Position numbers and translations under genes: made by a program
The notes under the pieces: generated by a model
What the model was told of the DNA's origin: nothing
The model's input: the letters and a program-made list of their open reading frames with translations, nothing else
Databases searched by the model: none
NCBI GenBank assembly: GCA_049700215.1
Contig: JBNAVT010000026.1
Coordinates: 1 to 28,050 of the forward strand
Origin: Thermoproteota archaeon
GTDB lineage: Archaea; Thermoproteota; EX4484-205; JAAOZP01
Direction of reading: 5' to 3'
Length of the DNA: 28,050 nt
Part shown: piece after piece, positions 13,412-18,739 of the stretch
Layout of the letters: each line of letters begins with the position of its first letter
How positions within the stretch are numbered: the first letter of the stretch is position 1

Positions 13412-14395
13412 TTGGTCTGGAAAAGAAGAGTCTTGAAAGCAGGCTCAGGCTCATTCCTCGTGACTCTTCCGAAAAACTGGGTTAAGCAGAGCAGGATAGA
13501 TAAGGGAATGACCCTAACAATGGTGAGCAACAAGGATGGCTCCCTGACGATAATACCCGAGGGGGGTGGGAGGCTGGTTGAGGAGGCTGTTAAAATAGAC
13601 TTGTCGCACCTGGAGTTGAAGCCGCAGCATGTTCTTCTCGGAAGCTATTTGCTCGGCTATAACACGATAATCATCAGAAGCGAGGAAGAGTTTTCAACAG
13701 CCGAGATATCTGAGGTGCGCAAGATAGTCAGGAGGCTTCCTGGGGCAGAGATATCTGAGGAGACTTCAAACCAGATAGAGGTCAGGGTGCTGCTCGACCC
13801 GGAGATGATAACTCCTGAGAAACTCGTCAGGAGGCAGAGCGCCCTCGCCGCGAGCATGATAGCCGACTGCGTTAAAGCATTAGTGAAAATGGATAAGGAG
13901 CTTGCTGAAAGGGTTATTGAGAGGGATGAGGAGGTTGACAGACAGTATTTCATACTCGTCAGGGTGATTAGGTCTGCCCTGAGGAACCCTGAGCTTCCGG
14001 CTAAGATGGGGATGGACTTCCTAAACCTGATGGATCTCAGGATGCTGGTGAAATACGTTGAGGATTCTGCGGACCAGTGTGTCCAAATATCCAGGGAGGT
14101 TTTAAGGATGCATGGCAGGGTCAAGAGGATAAGCCTAGGCGGGTTGAGCAATATGGGTGAAACCTTGAGCGACATGCATTCTAAGGCGATAGAGCTTTTC
14201 AGCATTTTCAACACCAATGTTCTGAGGGAGATAATGGAGAAGCATGCGGAGGTTGAGGAGAAGCTTCTAAGCCTTGAGGAGAAGCAGGATTACAGGGCGT
14301 ACGCCACGAGCCTGGTTAAAGTCTTCAACAGTCTCGTGAAAATACTTGAAAACATTAAGGATATTGTGGAGCTAGTGTCGATAAAGGCTTTTTAA
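13412..14395 (+). CDS. phoU: Archaeal phosphate uptake regulator PhoU with N-terminal AbrB domain
   Basis: AbrB motif RRV..GSGSFLVTLPKNW, YLLGY, G.EI.EE, DEEVDRQY and EDSAD. Confidence 0.9.
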   Translation: MVWKRRVLKAGSGSFLVTLPKNWVKQSRIDKGMTLTMVSNKDGSLTIIPEGGGRLVEEAVKIDLSHLELKPQHVLLGSYLLGYNTIIIRSEEEFSTAEISEVRKIVRRLPGAEISEETSNQIEVRVLLDPEMITPEKLVRRQSALAASMIADCVKALVKMDKELAERVIERDEEVDRQYFILVRVIRSALRNPELPAKMGMDFLNLMDLRMLVKYVEDSADQCVQISREVLRMHGRVKRISLGGLSNMGETLSDMHSKAIELFSIFNTNVLREIMEKHAEVEEKLLSLEEKQDYRAYATSLVKVFNSLVKILENIKDIVELVSIKAF

Positions 14396-17154
14396 ACACT
14401 CAGCTTTTCCAAAAGCCGCCCGTTCTGAGCCTCCCCGTTCAGCCGTAGCAGCAGCTCATCCTTCGAGTTAACTCCTACAAGCGATTTCGCAGCAGCCTCT
14501 AAAAGGCTTGAAACAGGCTCGACAACAATGCCTTTAGACTCTAAGAGTTCAACTATCTTAAGGCTCTTCATCGACTCGTAGTTGAACACGGGGACGAGAA
14601 GCTTCTTCGCATACTTGTCGGCTAAAGCAGCATCTATCTTACCCATGCCCCTGTGGTCCAGCCCTCCAACCGGCCAGACCTCCCCCTTGGCTGTTATCGC
14701 GCCAGTCATTATCACCGTGGGGTCCACCTCAATACCGGTGAAAGCAGATATCATCGCCACGCCTATTGCAAGCCCTGCTGAAGGGCCTGAGACAGGAGGA
14801 TAGGAGAGGCCTGGGCGGAGCTGAAGCTTCTCCATGCCCTTAGCCGGCGTGACTAGCTCCACGAAAACATCGTGATTCTTAAACCTCCACCCGGAAATAC
14901 TGTTGACGTATATGAAAGCGTCTTCAGCACTCGCCTGAATGCTTTCACCATACTCGCTTCCAACAACCTTCACAACACCCTTCCCCCTAGGATTAGTGAG
15001 AACCTCGATGACGCTTACAAACCCGCTCTGCTCCCCGGCTGCACCTATTGCGACGAGGCCGTAGCTCTTACCAACCTCAGGGCTCTCCACTCTCACACTC
15101 CTATCTATCATCGTCCTAGCCTCGCTTACAGCCTCCTCCTCCGAAAGGGTTTCCAACGCCTCTTGGAAATGAATCGGCCGCAACGGGTAGTTTGAAGCCG
15201 AGACCAGCCTGAGGCTGTCGAGAAATCCCTCGGAAGACTGGTCTAATCCAAGTATTTTAGAAAGCCTCTCCAGATCCTTAGCGTAGATCTTTCTTATCTC
15301 CTCAACCGGGCGGCCCTCGTCCACTGTTTTAACAAGCTGCCTCGCAGCATCCAGCTCCTTAACCCTGAGCCTGTTAGCCTCGTTTATAACGTCGGCAATC
15401 CTCCTGGGGCTTAAAGCCTTCTTCCTAAGTATCTCCAGCACGCTGTCCACGGTTGCTTCAGAGCTAAGGACATCCAGATACTTCTTCAAATGGATACTTA
15501 TGATCTCCTTCCTCTCCTCGTCGCTCCTAGGATAGTTGAATTCGAACACGCGTGTAAACCTTTCCAACAGAGCCCTGTCGAGAACGTCAATCCTGTTCGT
15601 GCTGGCTATCACCACCACGCCTGAGAGAGGTATGAAGCCGTCAAGCTCTGTCAAAAGCTGGCTCGTAACCCTATCTATAACAGGGTCATGGGTGCCGCGC
15701 CCAGGGGCCACGGAATCTATCTCGTCGAAGAAAACTATGGCTGGAGAATTTCTCCTAGCATCCTCGAAAATATCCCTTATCGTTTTCTCAGGATCCCCGT
15801 ACATCCCCTGTATTATGGAAGGCCCGTTGACAAGGTAGAACCAGACATTGTTCTCCCCGGCTATGGCTCTGGCGAGAAGAGTCTTACCGGTTCCCGGCGG
15901 GCCGTGGAAAAGAAAGCCTTTCGGAGGAATATACCTAGCCTTGCTTGCAAGCTCAGGGTTCAAAGACAAGGAGATTTCCTTTATAATCTCCTCCCTAACG
16001 CCTTTAAGCCCACCGACGTCCGCGTAACGCTCCTTAGGCCTAAGCTTAACCACAGACTTTTTCGCAGCCTCCGTCCTAGTGCTTACGGAGTAGGCCTTAA
16101 CTTTTGAAGCAGCCTCCCTGAAATCGTTAAGCGTAACAAGCTCGCCAGGGTTAACCTGGCTCCCAGGCTGGTTCCCGTGTAGAAGCCTGTCGACAATCCT
16201 CTTCTGAAGCGGAGCCGCCTTATTGCTGATAACCATCTGGAAAGCGTTAACTATGTCAGCAGGAGTTATGGCCTGCGTTTCAAAAGACCTTACACTGTCC
16301 TCTATCACTGTAAGAATGTCTTGCGGAGGGAGCCTCACACCGTGAACCTTACACTGTTTCTCAACTATTTTAAGAAGCATCTGCCTAGATATGTTTTCAT
16401 CAAGATCTATTGTTCCAGCAACCCCCCTCCTGCGGAGAGTATCTATAAGCGACTCATACTCGGTTGTTGAAACCAGCACCACGGTTCGGTAATCCTTCCT
16501 CTGAAGCTCGTCGAACTTCTCGAGGAGGACTGTTTGAACCCTTGTCTCCTCCATCCCAACTTCTGTCGTCGAGCTAAACTTTTTAGCAAAGGCTTGGAAC
16601 TCGTCTATCAAAACTATGCTGGGGTTGTAGAACACGTTGTTGAAGAACTCGCTGAGCCTCTGCGCACTCTGGCCATACCACATGGAGTAAACCTGTTCGG
16701 GCTTAAGCCTGGCGAGGTTAACCAGCAGACCATACTCTAAGCCTTTCTCAAAGCCCTCTCTCTGAGCGATCTCCGCGAAAAATGTTTTACCCGAGCCGCT
16801 TGAACCCTTTACGACGAACAGCTTCGGCGGAGGGGCTGCTTTAAAAGTCCGCCTTATCTCTGGATCTCTCAAAACATGGTAGTGGATGCTGACAAGAACC
16901 TTGAACAGCTCCTCATCCCTGCCAACGAGGTCCTCCCTGGCGACTCTGGGAAACATCGGGTTTTTCCTGATCTTCCTAGCCTTTTTCTCAACTATTTTCT
17001 TCCTCTTCTCCGGGGGGAGGCGGAGAAACTTCCACATGCGGTATTTCCATGAGAACAGGTTGAGTAGCGGGGAGAACAATAGTCTTAGAAACGGTTTCTT
17101 ATACCACCATTCCTCCTCGAACTCCCTGTCCTCTTCGAACTCGCCTGAAAACAT
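14392..17154 (-). CDS. Tandem (D1-D2) Cdc48-like AAA ATPase fused to a C-terminal Lon S16 protease domain
   Basis: D1: GSSGSGKT, pore loop MWYG, VLIDE, LRRR. D2: DVGGL, PKGFLFHGPPGTGKTLLARAIA, IVFFDEID, QLLTELDG, STNR, ALLERF. Lon domain: VGKSYGL, GPSAGLA, MTGAI, PVGG, KIDAA. Confidence 0.88.
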   Translation of the reverse strand: MFSGEFEEDREFEEEWWYKKPFLRLLFSPLLNLFSWKYRMWKFLRLPPEKRKKIVEKKARKIRKNPMFPRVAREDLVGRDEELFKVLVSIHYHVLRDPEIRRTFKAAPPPKLFVVKGSSGSGKTFFAEIAQREGFEKGLEYGLLVNLARLKPEQVYSMWYGQSAQRLSEFFNNVFYNPSIVLIDEFQAFAKKFSSTTEVGMEETRVQTVLLEKFDELQRKDYRTVVLVSTTEYESLIDTLRRRGVAGTIDLDENISRQMLLKIVEKQCKVHGVRLPPQDILTVIEDSVRSFETQAITPADIVNAFQMVISNKAAPLQKRIVDRLLHGNQPGSQVNPGELVTLNDFREAASKVKAYSVSTRTEAAKKSVVKLRPKERYADVGGLKGVREEIIKEISLSLNPELASKARYIPPKGFLFHGPPGTGKTLLARAIAGENNVWFYLVNGPSIIQGMYGDPEKTIRDIFEDARRNSPAIVFFDEIDSVAPGRGTHDPVIDRVTSQLLTELDGFIPLSGVVVIASTNRIDVLDRALLERFTRVFEFNYPRSDEERKEIISIHLKKYLDVLSSEATVDSVLEILRKKALSPRRIADVINEANRLRVKELDAARQLVKTVDEGRPVEEIRKIYAKDLERLSKILGLDQSSEGFLDSLRLVSASNYPLRPIHFQEALETLSEEEAVSEARTMIDRSVRVESPEVGKSYGLVAIGAAGEQSGFVSVIEVLTNPRGKGVVKVVGSEYGESIQASAEDAFIYVNSISGWRFKNHDVFVELVTPAKGMEKLQLRPGLSYPPVSGPSAGLAIGVAMISAFTGIEVDPTVIMTGAITAKGEVWPVGGLDHRGMGKIDAALADKYAKKLLVPVFNYESMKSLKIVELLESKGIVVEPVSSLLEAAAKSLVGVNSKDELLLRLNGEAQNGRLLEKLSV

Positions 17155-17180
17155 CCTCTTGGAAACAGTATGGCACCTAG

Positions 17181-17196
17181 GTATAAAGCTTTATAC
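17181..17196. promoter_or_regulatory. Perfect 16-bp palindrome containing back-to-back TATA boxes (bidirectional promoter or operator)
   Basis: GTATAAAGCTTTATAC is its own reverse complement. The minus-strand TTTATA lies 28-33 nt upstream of the ATG at 17154. Confidence 0.6.
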
Positions 17197-17259
17197 ACAG
17201 TTATTAAACTTAGGAATACGGAAAGAATAAATGCAGCGTTCAAGCATCGCTATAGAGGG

Positions 17260-17979
17260 TTGCTGAGGAAAACCGTGTTGACGCTATTAAGCTGGATACT
17301 ACTGACCTATGTAGTAGCTTCAGTCCCCGGGAACGGTGAGGTGGCGGAATACGATTTCCCGAGGGTAAACATTCTGGAGGGAGACCTTTTCCTGGTAACG
17401 CTGAGCCCCCCTGCGGAGAACATTCAAGTATACGTCAGAGGCTCGGAAACTGGGGATTTTTCCCTACTCGTATTAACGAATAGCAGCCTCGCCATACCTG
17501 TTTTAACGGGGCGCGTTTCAATAGTTCAATTCATACCTGAGTCTACGGTGACGAACCTTACTGTGACGTTCGACTCGAACAAGACCGTGAAAATGCTCTA
17601 CGGTATTTTAACGAACAACTACACGTACTACAGGCAGGTTTCCTCAGACTACTATACTTTCTCCAACGGTATTCTAGTGATTCTTCAGCCGCAAATAACG
17701 ATTCCCAGAGGAGCCTCGAGAATAACTTTTATTCTAAACAGGATTAAAGCCAAGAGCCCTGGTGGTTTTCTCATAGATCTGCCTCCGCTGGCGAAAATGC
17801 TTCCGTTCGCAGCCGCGGTAGCGATACTCGCATACTTGAACGCTTACGTAATCGTCGACTCCTACTACGTATCTAAGCGGGAGGAATTGAGCAGGAGCAG
17901 GAAACTGGGCGTAGCACTTCTAATAGCTTTAAGCGCGCTCGCAATATACTGGCTGTTTAACAACTTCGTTAAATACTAA
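17260..17979 (+). CDS. Uncharacterised membrane protein: signal peptide, extracellular beta-rich domain, two C-terminal TM helices
   Basis: LRKTVLTLLSWILLTYVVAS signal-like segment, N-glycosylation sequons (NSS, NLT, NKT, NYT) and two C-terminal hydrophobic helices. TTG at 17260 is preferred over the ORF start at 17170. Confidence 0.7.
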   Translation: MLRKTVLTLLSWILLTYVVASVPGNGEVAEYDFPRVNILEGDLFLVTLSPPAENIQVYVRGSETGDFSLLVLTNSSLAIPVLTGRVSIVQFIPESTVTNLTVTFDSNKTVKMLYGILTNNYTYYRQVSSDYYTFSNGILVILQPQITIPRGASRITFILNRIKAKSPGGFLIDLPPLAKMLPFAAAVAILAYLNAYVIVDSYYVSKREELSRSRKLGVALLIALSALAIYWLFNNFVKY

Positions 17980-18739
17980 GGTAGATTTCCTCAGGATAAA
18001 TCTGGCACCTCTCACAGTAATACCTGGACTCCTCAGGTTTCCAAACGAGTTTAGAGCCGCAGCTTGGACAGAGAGGCGGGGTTCCCAGGGGAGGAACTCT
18101 TACCCTCCTGGTTTCTCCAGCCCCCGTTCCAACAGGCTTTTCTAAAGCCTGGGGCTTAACGGGCTTAGCTGGGGCGGGAGGAGGCTTAAGGGTTAGGACG
18201 AGATGGGTTAAAACCCCTGATAACACTGCTACTGCAATAATGTTGACTATTGCTCCAGTAATGATCATGAGTGAAAGAGTTGCGACAGCATCATCCACCA
18301 CAACGGATCTTAGAGAGAGATCATATAGGAATGGCTTTAAATCCTTATGCAAAGAGTACACGCCTAGGACGGACACTAGGGCGATGGAGAAAACAGATGC
18401 CTTGACGGCGTCGGATATGGAGTGAGACGTGATGCTTGCGGCAACGCTTATAATAACAATGATCCCTAGACATATTGCGAGCCAAACACCAGAATTGAAA
18501 AACCGTGTGAAAACACTTACGAGACTCTTACCCTGGGTTGCAACAGCCTCAATGCCGAATCCTGAGATAGACATGCCGAGAGCATAAACCCACGGGCTAT
18601 TGTTGAAGCCTGTCAGGCTTATGCTTTCACTCTCGTATTGAATACTGCTTGAGGGAAGCATGGCTATTATGGAGTCGACCAAAAGTACTGGCGAGAGCGC
18701 GATGAGCGTCAACACCATTATCACCAGAATCAGCCTCAA
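17969..18739 (-). CDS. Multi-pass membrane protein with Pro-rich linker and C-terminal Zn ribbon
   Basis: About 4-5 hydrophobic segments, KPPPAPAKPVKP linker and CPSCG..L.W.....RYYCERC. Confidence 0.75.
   Translation of the reverse strand: MRLILVIMVLTLIALSPVLLVDSIIAMLPSSSIQYESESISLTGFNNSPWVYALGMSISGFGIEAVATQGKSLVSVFTRFFNSGVWLAICLGIIVIISVAASITSHSISDAVKASVFSIALVSVLGVYSLHKDLKPFLYDLSLRSVVVDDAVATLSLMIITGAIVNIIAVAVLSGVLTHLVLTLKPPPAPAKPVKPQALEKPVGTGAGETRRVRVPPLGTPPLCPSCGSKLVWKPEESRYYCERCQIYPEEIYLSI

Follow-up and report, generated by a model that had tools for sequence, protein, structure and literature searches.

Tandem classic AAA modules fused to a Lon protease domain and encoded beside a conserved membrane-protein gene in Thermoproteota archaea

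The recognized energy-dependent proteases are Lon, FtsH, the Clp proteases, HslUV, and the proteasome with PAN, Mpa, or Cdc48. In ClpA or ClpC with ClpP, a two-tier AAA+ unfoldase feeds a serine protease chamber; ClpP is a separate tetradecamer with a different fold, and the D2 module of ClpA and ClpC belongs to the HCLR clade. Here we describe a gene on a 28,050-nucleotide (nt) stretch of DNA from a Thermoproteota archaeon (assembly GCA_049700215.1, contig JBNAVT010000026.1, positions 1 to 28,050; the window) that encodes two classic-type AAA modules and a Lon protease domain in one chain. Its product is probably a hexameric, self-compartmentalized ATP-dependent serine protease with a D1-D2-Lon layout that has not been described before, and it would work with a membrane partner encoded by the adjacent gene.

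Among the closest described systems, LonB is regarded as the membrane-proximal Lon of archaea in the portion of a 2022 subfamily review that was available (PMC9569914), and its AAA+ module is assigned to the HCLR clade in the available portion of another paper (PMC5039278). Archaeal activators of the Cdc48/VAT type carry a hydrophobic-Tyr-X (HbYX) tail (PMC4192671, available in part). The accessible text of a 2008 survey of Lon architectures gives LON-AAA-Lon_C, Sigma54-AAA-Lon_C, Mg_chelatase-Lon_C, and others and no AAA-AAA-Lon_C, with the proviso that its Additional file 1 may list more (PMC2605481). Only LonA, LonB, LonC, and LonBA are distinguished in the accessible part of the 2022 review (PMC9569914), and the accessible parts of two further papers (PMC11188069 and PMC5070193) hold no tandem classic AAA plus Lon layout. 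A search of the literature, outside of which lay most subscription journals and supplements, found no description of one. A preliminary description of this DNA had noted that no characterized protein was known to have an AAA-AAA-Lon layout, and we likewise found none in the literature or in sequence and fold searches of the PDB. The modules are familiar ones, their conserved arrangement and the partner are new, and the genes can already be found in public databases under generic names.

The protease gene encodes 920 residues, enclosed by a 932-residue stop-to-stop open reading frame (ORF). From the N terminus, the chain consists of a helical region, the D1 AAA module, the D2 AAA module, a helical linker, and a Lon S16 protease domain. 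Its features are as follows.

14392-17154, minus strand: whole protease gene, 920 residues plus stop codon, ATG start (ORF list, translation, Pfam, NCBIfam)
17026-17109, minus strand: N-terminal aromatic and basic motif WWY..R....PLL.L.S..YR.W.F, residues 16-43 (alignment columns)
16165-16842, minus strand: D1 AAA module, about residues 105-330 (motifs and alignment)
16783-16806, minus strand: D1 Walker A, GSSGSGKT, residues 117-124
16672-16683, minus strand: D1 pore loop, MWYG, residues 158-161
16600-16614, minus strand: D1 Walker B, VLIDE, residues 181-185
16426-16434, minus strand: D1 arginine fingers, RRR, R241-243
15235-16032, minus strand: D2 AAA module, about residues 375-640 (best Pfam stretch, 415-540)
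15880-15903, minus strand: D2 Walker A, GPPGTGKT, residues 418-425
15796-15807, minus strand: D2 pore loop, GMYG, residues 450-453
15721-15732, minus strand: D2 Walker B, FFDE, residues 475-478
15559-15603, minus strand: D2 sensor 1 and arginine finger, STNR..LLERF (STNR, 518-521)
14470-15087, minus strand: Lon S16 protease domain, about residues 690-895 (Lon_C match and LonB alignment)
Within the Lon domain, minus strand: motifs GPSAG (790-794), MTG (816-818), PVGG (828-831), and GKIDAA (838-843)
14779-14781, minus strand: codon of Ser792, catalytic by alignment
14638-14640, minus strand: codon of Lys839, catalytic by alignment

In Pfam searches, PF00004 (AAA) matched in two stretches with a total of 184 bits, and PF05362 (Lon_C) matched residues 690-866 with 52.7 bits against a cut-off of 21.1. 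The protein ends in EKLSV rather than in an HbYX motif, and none of the 24 aligned family members has an HbYX ending. The CDC48 N-domain family is absent among the best 25 of 34 Pfam matches listed for the protease. The stretch ahead of D1 is only about 105 residues long and is helical in the structure model described below. The N-terminal motif, which occupies the position of the Cdc48 N domain, is helical with confident prediction (predicted local distance difference test score [pLDDT] of 82-90), and its W17 and R24 are at least 90% conserved among 79 sequences. The first 75 residues include 14 aromatic and 20 basic ones. No transmembrane segment was found in the protease, in which the top 19-residue Kyte-Doolittle window (1.61) is the buried helix after Ser792. 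We rejected the N terminus as an amphipathic membrane anchor, given the lack of a transmembrane segment and a hydrophobic moment below the 95th percentile of the protein itself.

Next, we examined the conservation of catalytic residues in an alignment of 79 members that are 31-95% identical to the query, with column views of 24 diverse members. In D1, G120, G122, and K123 of Walker A are invariant, D184 and E185 of Walker B and R241-243 are at least 90% conserved, and the pore loop is mostly M/K-W-Y-G among the 24 members. D2 is invariant throughout G418-T425 of Walker A, at D477 and E478 of Walker B, at N520 of sensor 1, and at the arginine finger R532. All 79 sequences have Ser792, and the conservation of Lys839 is 90% or higher. 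Among PDB sequences, the protease part best matches the LonB protease domain of A. fulgidus (47 bits); Ser792 aligns with the LonB catalytic Ser, and Lys839 aligns with the Lys of KIEAA after a 4-residue insertion. The residue before Ser792 is Pro, as in an "A-type" center, whereas LonB has Asp at this position.

These results bear out most of what the preliminary description had read from the letters. The single 920-residue ORF with two AAA modules and a Lon S16 domain contains every motif that it named, and its C terminus matches Lon_C well above the cut-off. The proposed catalytic Ser and Lys are conserved as given above and align with the LonB catalytic region; the Lys codon had been placed exactly, and the Ser codon had been placed at 14777-14779, 2 nt off. 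The stated lack of a Cdc48 N domain and an HbYX tail also holds for this protein, and the lack of the tail holds for its 24 aligned relatives.

We then determined how widely the layout occurs. In a word-indexed protein search, 1,416 proteins reached an E value of ≤0.001 among 8,000 scored candidates. AAA and Lon_C were both found in 118 of the best 120 clusters listed, the other two being truncated records without Lon_C, and this recurrence is far beyond chance. Most of the listed relatives have 841-930 residues, and their database names are only "AAA family ATPase," "transitional endoplasmic reticulum ATPase," "SpoVK/Ycf46/Vps4 family," and "hypothetical"; the named sources are Thermoproteota, Brockarchaeota, Bathyarchaeia, Marsarchaeota, and Nitrososphaerota. 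An exhaustive search of 50%-identity representatives gave at least 18 single full-length matches among the best 150, down to 32% identity, some of them from an unclassified archaeon, Bathyarchaeia, Nitrososphaerales, and one "Nealsonbacteria" metagenome-assembled genome (MAG). As leads only, the ESM Atlas holds two archaeal clusters, one with 110 members (Lon_C on 98%) and one with 118 (Lon_C on 97%).

Searching 401 sampled genomes of the phylum with protease residues 561-920 gave a strong match (63.9 bits or more) in 55 genomes. Fifty of these carriers have one open frame of 904-957 residues, and in the remaining five the gene is truncated or in fragments. Of the 16 other genomes of the same genus, 15 have the gene. 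Contigs from sequencing runs of three other studies span 14582-15436 or 14497-15621 and run across the junction of the D2 lid with the Lon domain, at about nt 15087-15234. Thus, the fusion, which had been reported as one uninterrupted frame, is real, and the AAA-Lon gene is not an assembly chimera. Four sequencing runs were examined, three labeled hot springs and one sediment; the habitat is taken from run labels only. Contig joints that skip 305, 82, and 453 nt were rejected as deletions; their sides are 22-30 letters long, and we took them to be from other organisms or conserved AAA stretches.

Some family members and relatives show features of their own. The P0133 cluster (1,120 residues, from Nitrososphaerales MAGs of a marine lineage) has a D1 without the Walker A and B consensus (GPGWGKK and IEQ) and without RRR and retains D2 and the Lon Ser-Lys dyad; to judge from its residues, D1 of this lineage has apparently turned into a structural ring. 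Two members, P0113 and P0134, have 1,261 residues each. P0113 contains the intein and homing-endonuclease families PF14528 and PF14890 and is 59% identical to the query over 53% of its length; P0134 matches the query in two stretches. An intein seems to be inserted in the ATPase of these members. Four genomes (G021, G371, G095, and G129) have one in-frame TAG or TAA within the match to the C-terminal 360 residues, which may reflect read-through of the match beyond the true stop at a variable C terminus. The third-ranked ESM Atlas cluster is bacterial, with 93 members and a representative of 1,140 residues; AAA is found in 100% and Lon_C in 84% of the members. The phylum is known for only two of them, both Thermodesulfobacteriota, and a related bacterial layout may exist, which we regard as a lead only.

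An AlphaFold2 monomer model built from the 79-sequence alignment has a mean pLDDT of 84.1. Helices at 16-63 form its N-terminal region, which is followed by two AAA cores of alpha/beta type with their lids, by additional helices that reach residue 686, and by a Lon-like alpha/beta domain at 696-895. In a Foldseek search of the PDB, the model matched the tandem AAA unfoldases CDC48A, p97, NVL, VAT, and Rix7 (E about 1e-30 over 577-644 columns); these matches cover D1-D2 only, and none of them reaches into a protease. Likewise, the PDB sequence search had no Lon among the 60 best whole-protein matches listed. The best PDB match of D1 is VAT D1, with 48.7 bits versus 29.8 bits for VAT D2.

The preliminary description called the protein a Cdc48-Lon chimera, and as stated this is not supported. 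The NCBIfam CDC48 profile (TIGR01243) gives 228.3 bits against a cut-off of 802.65, with residues 55-559 on profile positions 159-638 of 733. The protein also falls below the cut-offs for PAN (196 bits) and FtsH (TIGR01241, FtsH_fam; 175.7 bits against 600, on the D2 AAA part only), and ClpA is a weak match (27.9 bits); D2 itself matches the PAN, FtsH, and CDC48 profiles at E values of 1e-51 to 1e-67. LonB (TIGR00764; 57.1 bits against 516.6) and LonA (TIGR00763; 61.7 bits against 608.05) match the protease part only.

A maximum-likelihood tree was made from 60 AAA modules: D1 and D2 of 16 family members (of the 24 aligned) and of 11 archaeal Cdc48 proteins, 3 FtsH modules, 2 PAN-like single modules, and the CdvC-like gene of the archaeon's own genome. 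Some of the references are Cdc48 and FtsH loci from a scan of genome contigs. Family D1 forms a clade (100/100), as does Cdc48 D1 (100/99), and both family modules lie outside the group made up of Cdc48 D1, Cdc48 D2, FtsH, and the singles. Forcing family D1 together with Cdc48 D1 costs 7.0 log-likelihood units (approximately unbiased [AU] test, P = 0.21), and forcing family D2 together with Cdc48 D2 costs 12.5 units (AU test, P = 0.12); neither grouping is rejected. Because the free tree separates the modules but the AU tests do not reject joining them, a Cdc48 ancestry of D1 and D2 is no more than possible.

The Lon-domain tree comprises 31 domains, one weak row having been dropped: 16 from the family, 5 LonA, 5 LonB type, 2 Thermoproteota Lons of about 740 residues, and 3 short Lon-like domains. 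It recovers LonA (99/99) and LonB (100/95) and places the family in several unresolved lineages that are nested in neither. With a hidden Markov model of the family Lon domain, LonB proteins reach 103-110 bits and LonA proteins reach 84-98 bits. The two Thermoproteota Lon-like proteins of about 740-750 residues (L104 at G251:C79 and L105 at G287:C17) score 364-371 bits with the LonB profile against its cut-off of 516.6. Their motif is GPSAG, in which Ser is preceded by Pro and not by Asp as in LonB, and they form a long separate branch beside LonB.

The preliminary description omitted a strictly conserved neighbor, a gene for a membrane protein of no known family that diverges from the protease gene in the window, and the pairing is a new observation. 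The features of this side of the locus are as follows.

17260-17979, plus strand: partner gene, likely TTG start; longest ORF 17170-17979 (ATG)
17155-17259: divergent intergenic region, 105 nt, with the palindrome TATAAAGCTTTATA at 17182-17195

The TTG start at 17260 is inferred from homologues that mostly start later than 17170, and an ESM Atlas record and a profile match agree with it. Going by the archaeal consensus, the palindrome may be a two-way TATA element for both genes. The partner has 25 homologues, all "hypothetical" and without a Pfam family, and it has no Pfam or PADLOC match itself.

To survey the partner, 16 fetched regions spanning the depth of the family were combined with the window, and neighboring ORFs at these 17 loci were clustered. 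A membrane-protein gene of about 240-290 residues lies directly 5' of the protease gene in 17 of 17 loci, with the ORF as called being shorter (123-161 residues) in five, and no other neighbor gene is common to the loci beyond close relatives. BLAST separates two partner types, c1 in 9 loci and c2 in 8 loci. The partner is codirectional with the protease in 14 of the 17 loci, with gaps of 1-331 nt for c1 and with c2 ORFs as called overlapping the protease start by 14-53 nt; in three loci of the archaeon's own genus, it is inverted yet adjacent to the protease. The c1 profile matches 32 of the 401 phylum genomes, 30 of which hold the protease beside it on the same contig. A second c1-type copy in one genome (G085:C6:44974-45666) lies on another contig, away from the protease.

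In the partner model (pLDDT, 77.6), numbered from the ATG at 17170, residues 32-50 form a transmembrane helix, residues 59-192 form a confidently modeled beta-sandwich that is the predicted outer domain (pLDDT, about 90), and residues 207-268 form a helical hairpin. Foldseek against the PDB gave nothing at E ≤ 0.001, and the ESM Atlas gave no usable match. Conservation in c1 is highest in the short cytoplasmic loop that links the last two helices (Y232, S235, E238, S241, and R244); c2 has a conserved acidic tail, ...WRG.(Y/F)E.(I/V)DEE(E/D). Prediction of a complex between protease residues 1-370 and the partner from alignments scored 0.28 against a mark of 0.32, which is evidence neither way. 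Because a membrane-protein gene is so strictly conserved alongside, the protease machine is probably not a free-standing soluble enzyme.

The archaeon's own genome (2.09 Mb, 94.6% complete) contains one Lon_C match in a six-frame profile search, which is the protease gene. It holds two Cdc48 proteins above the cut-off (1,070 and 1,063 bits), encoded at C3:68366-70486 and C2:92063-94168 of genome G000, a CdvC/Vps4-like gene at C49:3418-4533 (396 bits, below the cut-off of 650), and three proteasome subunit genes. The profile search found no PAN above its cut-off. Since the genome holds two genuine Cdc48 proteins, the protease is an addition to Cdc48 and not a replacement of it. With two full Cdc48 proteins and neither PAN nor LonB above the cut-offs, the proteasome of this genome may rely on Cdc48.

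In the reading that we consider probable, which is modeled on Cdc48/VAT, FtsH, and Lon, the enzyme would be a hexamer whose D1, D2, and protease rings lie one above the other and share a single axial channel. The D1 pore loop with its aromatic residues (W-Y-G) would grip the substrate, D1 being divergent yet catalytically equipped and D2 being canonical. D2 would pull the substrate by ATP hydrolysis into the Lon chamber, where Ser792 and Lys839 would cleave it. The 20S proteasome would not be needed, because the protein has no HbYX tail and would carry the Lon ring on the D2 face. The membrane partner, in the role that we favor, would tether or direct the protease at the membrane and so provide in trans what is built into the chain of LonB and FtsH, and the purpose may be membrane-proximal protein quality control or regulated proteolysis. 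The architecture, the conserved catalytic residues, the spread among lineages, the gene pairing, and the gene inventory of the genome were observed directly; the hexamer, the threading, the proteolysis, the partner contact, and the partner role are what we infer.

Several observations weigh against this reading. The hexamer and its activity are deduced from homology. There are 46 residues between Ser792 and Lys839, with the 4-residue insertion lying before the Lys, versus exactly 42 between the catalytic Ser and Lys of LonA and LonB in the available part of the 2022 review (PMC9569914). The query and its clade have a G-M/H/V-Y-G pore loop in D2, where deep branches and VAT have K-W-V-G, and they have Thr at sensor 1 of D1, where most other members have Asn. 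Three of the 24 aligned members (P0133, P0140, and P0144) no longer have the D1 Walker B, and RRR is also gone in P0133, so D1 hydrolysis may be dispensable. As the D2 residues are invariant while D1 Walker B is lost in these members, D2 looks like the main motor, with a D1 that appears competent here and dispensable in some lineages. Homology between c1 and c2 is not detectable (hhalign probability, 1.5%), and the idea of one conserved partner therefore rests on position and topology. In two c1 genomes that are 88-90% complete, in which the partner lies near a contig end, the protease was not found, and in one genome with a protease fragment, the partner was not found. Finally, LonB above its cut-off was not found in the archaeon's own genome by the six-frame profile searches, the only kind made, or in any of the 401 phylum genomes, with 3 candidates scored per genome. 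Given this limit of 3 candidates, we dropped the claim of a distribution complementary to that of LonB.

The partner could instead be a substrate or signaling target of the protease: its ectodomain would sense the outside, and the protease would degrade the cytoplasmic loop or tail, comparable to the regulated proteolysis of transmembrane regulators. The peak of c1 conservation in the cytoplasmic loop fits this idea, as do the c2 acidic tail, which could be a degron, and the confidently folded ectodomain of the model. However, the partner matches no Pfam family and lacks an output domain, DNA-binding or otherwise, and a subunit or adaptor would account equally well for its one-to-one pairing with a core protease of the whole genus. 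We regard this explanation as unlikely. It is considerably less probable still that the Lon domain is a noncatalytic ring scaffold, as in RadA/Sms and ComM, and that the protein is only an unfoldase or segregase. Protease-inactive Lon-like domains are known for RadA and ComM, and LonC is without ATPase activity, according to the available parts of the sources, and the unusual Ser-Lys spacing would suit such a role. Against it stand Ser792 in every sequence and the near-constant Lys839 in a conserved GPSAG...GGL....GK context, and the retention of both residues over 31-95% identity argues for catalysis.

A pair of an AAA ATPase and a protease also recalls IetAS-like antiphage defense, and D2 indeed matches PADLOC IetA (139.8 bits) and NCBIfam IteA (120 bits). 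The IteA score is below its cut-off of 510, though, and CDC48 (228 bits), PAN (196 bits), and FtsH (176 bits) all outscore these matches, which are therefore general AAA similarity. Moreover, PADLOC gave only generic AAA matches for the genes of the window and none for the partner or other neighbors, the surrounding genes are housekeeping genes, and presence throughout nearly the whole genus is unlike the patchiness of defense islands. A defense function is thus very improbable. An artifact of assembly or gene calling that joined a Cdc48-like gene to a Lon gene has virtually no probability left; it is refuted by the single frames of the carriers, by the layout of the listed clusters, and by the junction-bridging contigs of three other studies.

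With the D1-D2-Lon protease and its membrane partner preferred over these alternatives, a bolder claim can be put forward tentatively, and we hold it to be rather doubtful: a sixth, unrecognized class of energy-dependent protease may exist, in which a three-tier D1-D2-Lon hexamer is docked on a dedicated membrane protein with a beta-sandwich ectodomain and, in Brockarchaeia, Bathyarchaeia, and related Thermoproteota, assumes the quality control near the membrane that falls to LonB in other archaea and to FtsH in bacteria. If so, an extracellular cue could be coupled to intracellular proteolysis. Independently of this claim, the family joins parts of two known protease types by setting a two-tier classic AAA motor directly on a Lon chamber; to our knowledge, such a motor is otherwise seen only with a separate protease. 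In this family, nature itself provides a test of what a fused protease gains from a second AAA ring. The family may also explain Lon-type proteolysis in archaeal lineages in which canonical LonB was not found, and it offers structural biology a compact single-gene D1-D2-protease stack from hot-spring archaea.

Around the pair, the window holds housekeeping genes, which encode an ECF S component, an AbrB-PhoU regulator, a pantothenate-kinase-like protein, dCTP deaminase, isopropylmalate dehydrogenase, and an aconitase-family protein. Two genes flank the protease-partner pair.

13412-14395, plus strand: regulator with an AbrB/MazE-type and a PhoU domain (cluster c3), converging on the protease gene with a 4-nt overlap of the 3' ends
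17969-18739, minus strand: 256-residue multipass membrane protein (cluster c9) with a C-terminal zinc-ribbon-like CxxC...CxxC

The regulator is kept beside the protease within the archaeon's own genus only. The gene for the 256-residue protein overlaps the end of the partner gene by 11 nt and is kept beside it in the same genus; the sole Pfam match of its product is a weak one to DNA_ligase_ZBD (21.1 bits, below the cut-off).

Compared with known systems, the protein is most like Cdc48/VAT in its motor, which shares the tandem D1-D2 classic AAA modules and aromatic pore loops and gives its best profile, PDB-sequence, and fold matches. Cdc48/VAT, however, has a double-psi-barrel N domain, an HbYX tail, and a separate 20S protease, whereas the protein described here has neither the N domain nor the tail, scores below the CDC48 cut-off, and has its own protease at the place where the 20S proteasome would dock. 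With LonA, it shares Pro before Ser (GPSAG) and the form of a soluble single-chain ATPase-protease; LonA differs in its LON N-terminal domain, its single HCLR-clade AAA+ module, and its 42 residues between Ser and Lys, and the family is not in the LonA clade. The Lon family as a whole (LonA, LonB, LonC, and LonBA) has a single HCLR module, in contrast to the two modules here, which are nearest the CDC48, PAN, and FtsH profiles. Archaeal LonB is alike in having a Lon S16 protease domain fused to an ATPase, but its single HCLR AAA+ module contains an inserted membrane anchor, its catalytic Ser follows an Asp, and 42 residues separate that Ser from the Lys. The protein described here has two AAA modules of the classic type, a Pro ahead of the Ser, and 46 intervening residues in a domain that is not nested in the LonB clade. 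FtsH resembles the protein in fusing a classic-type AAA ring in chain to a C-terminal protease ring, and it works at the membrane, as the protein probably does. It has a single AAA ring, a zinc metalloprotease of the M41 type, and N-terminal transmembrane helices of its own, whereas the protein described here has two AAA modules, a Ser-Lys Lon domain, and no transmembrane segment, its membrane element apparently being a separate gene.

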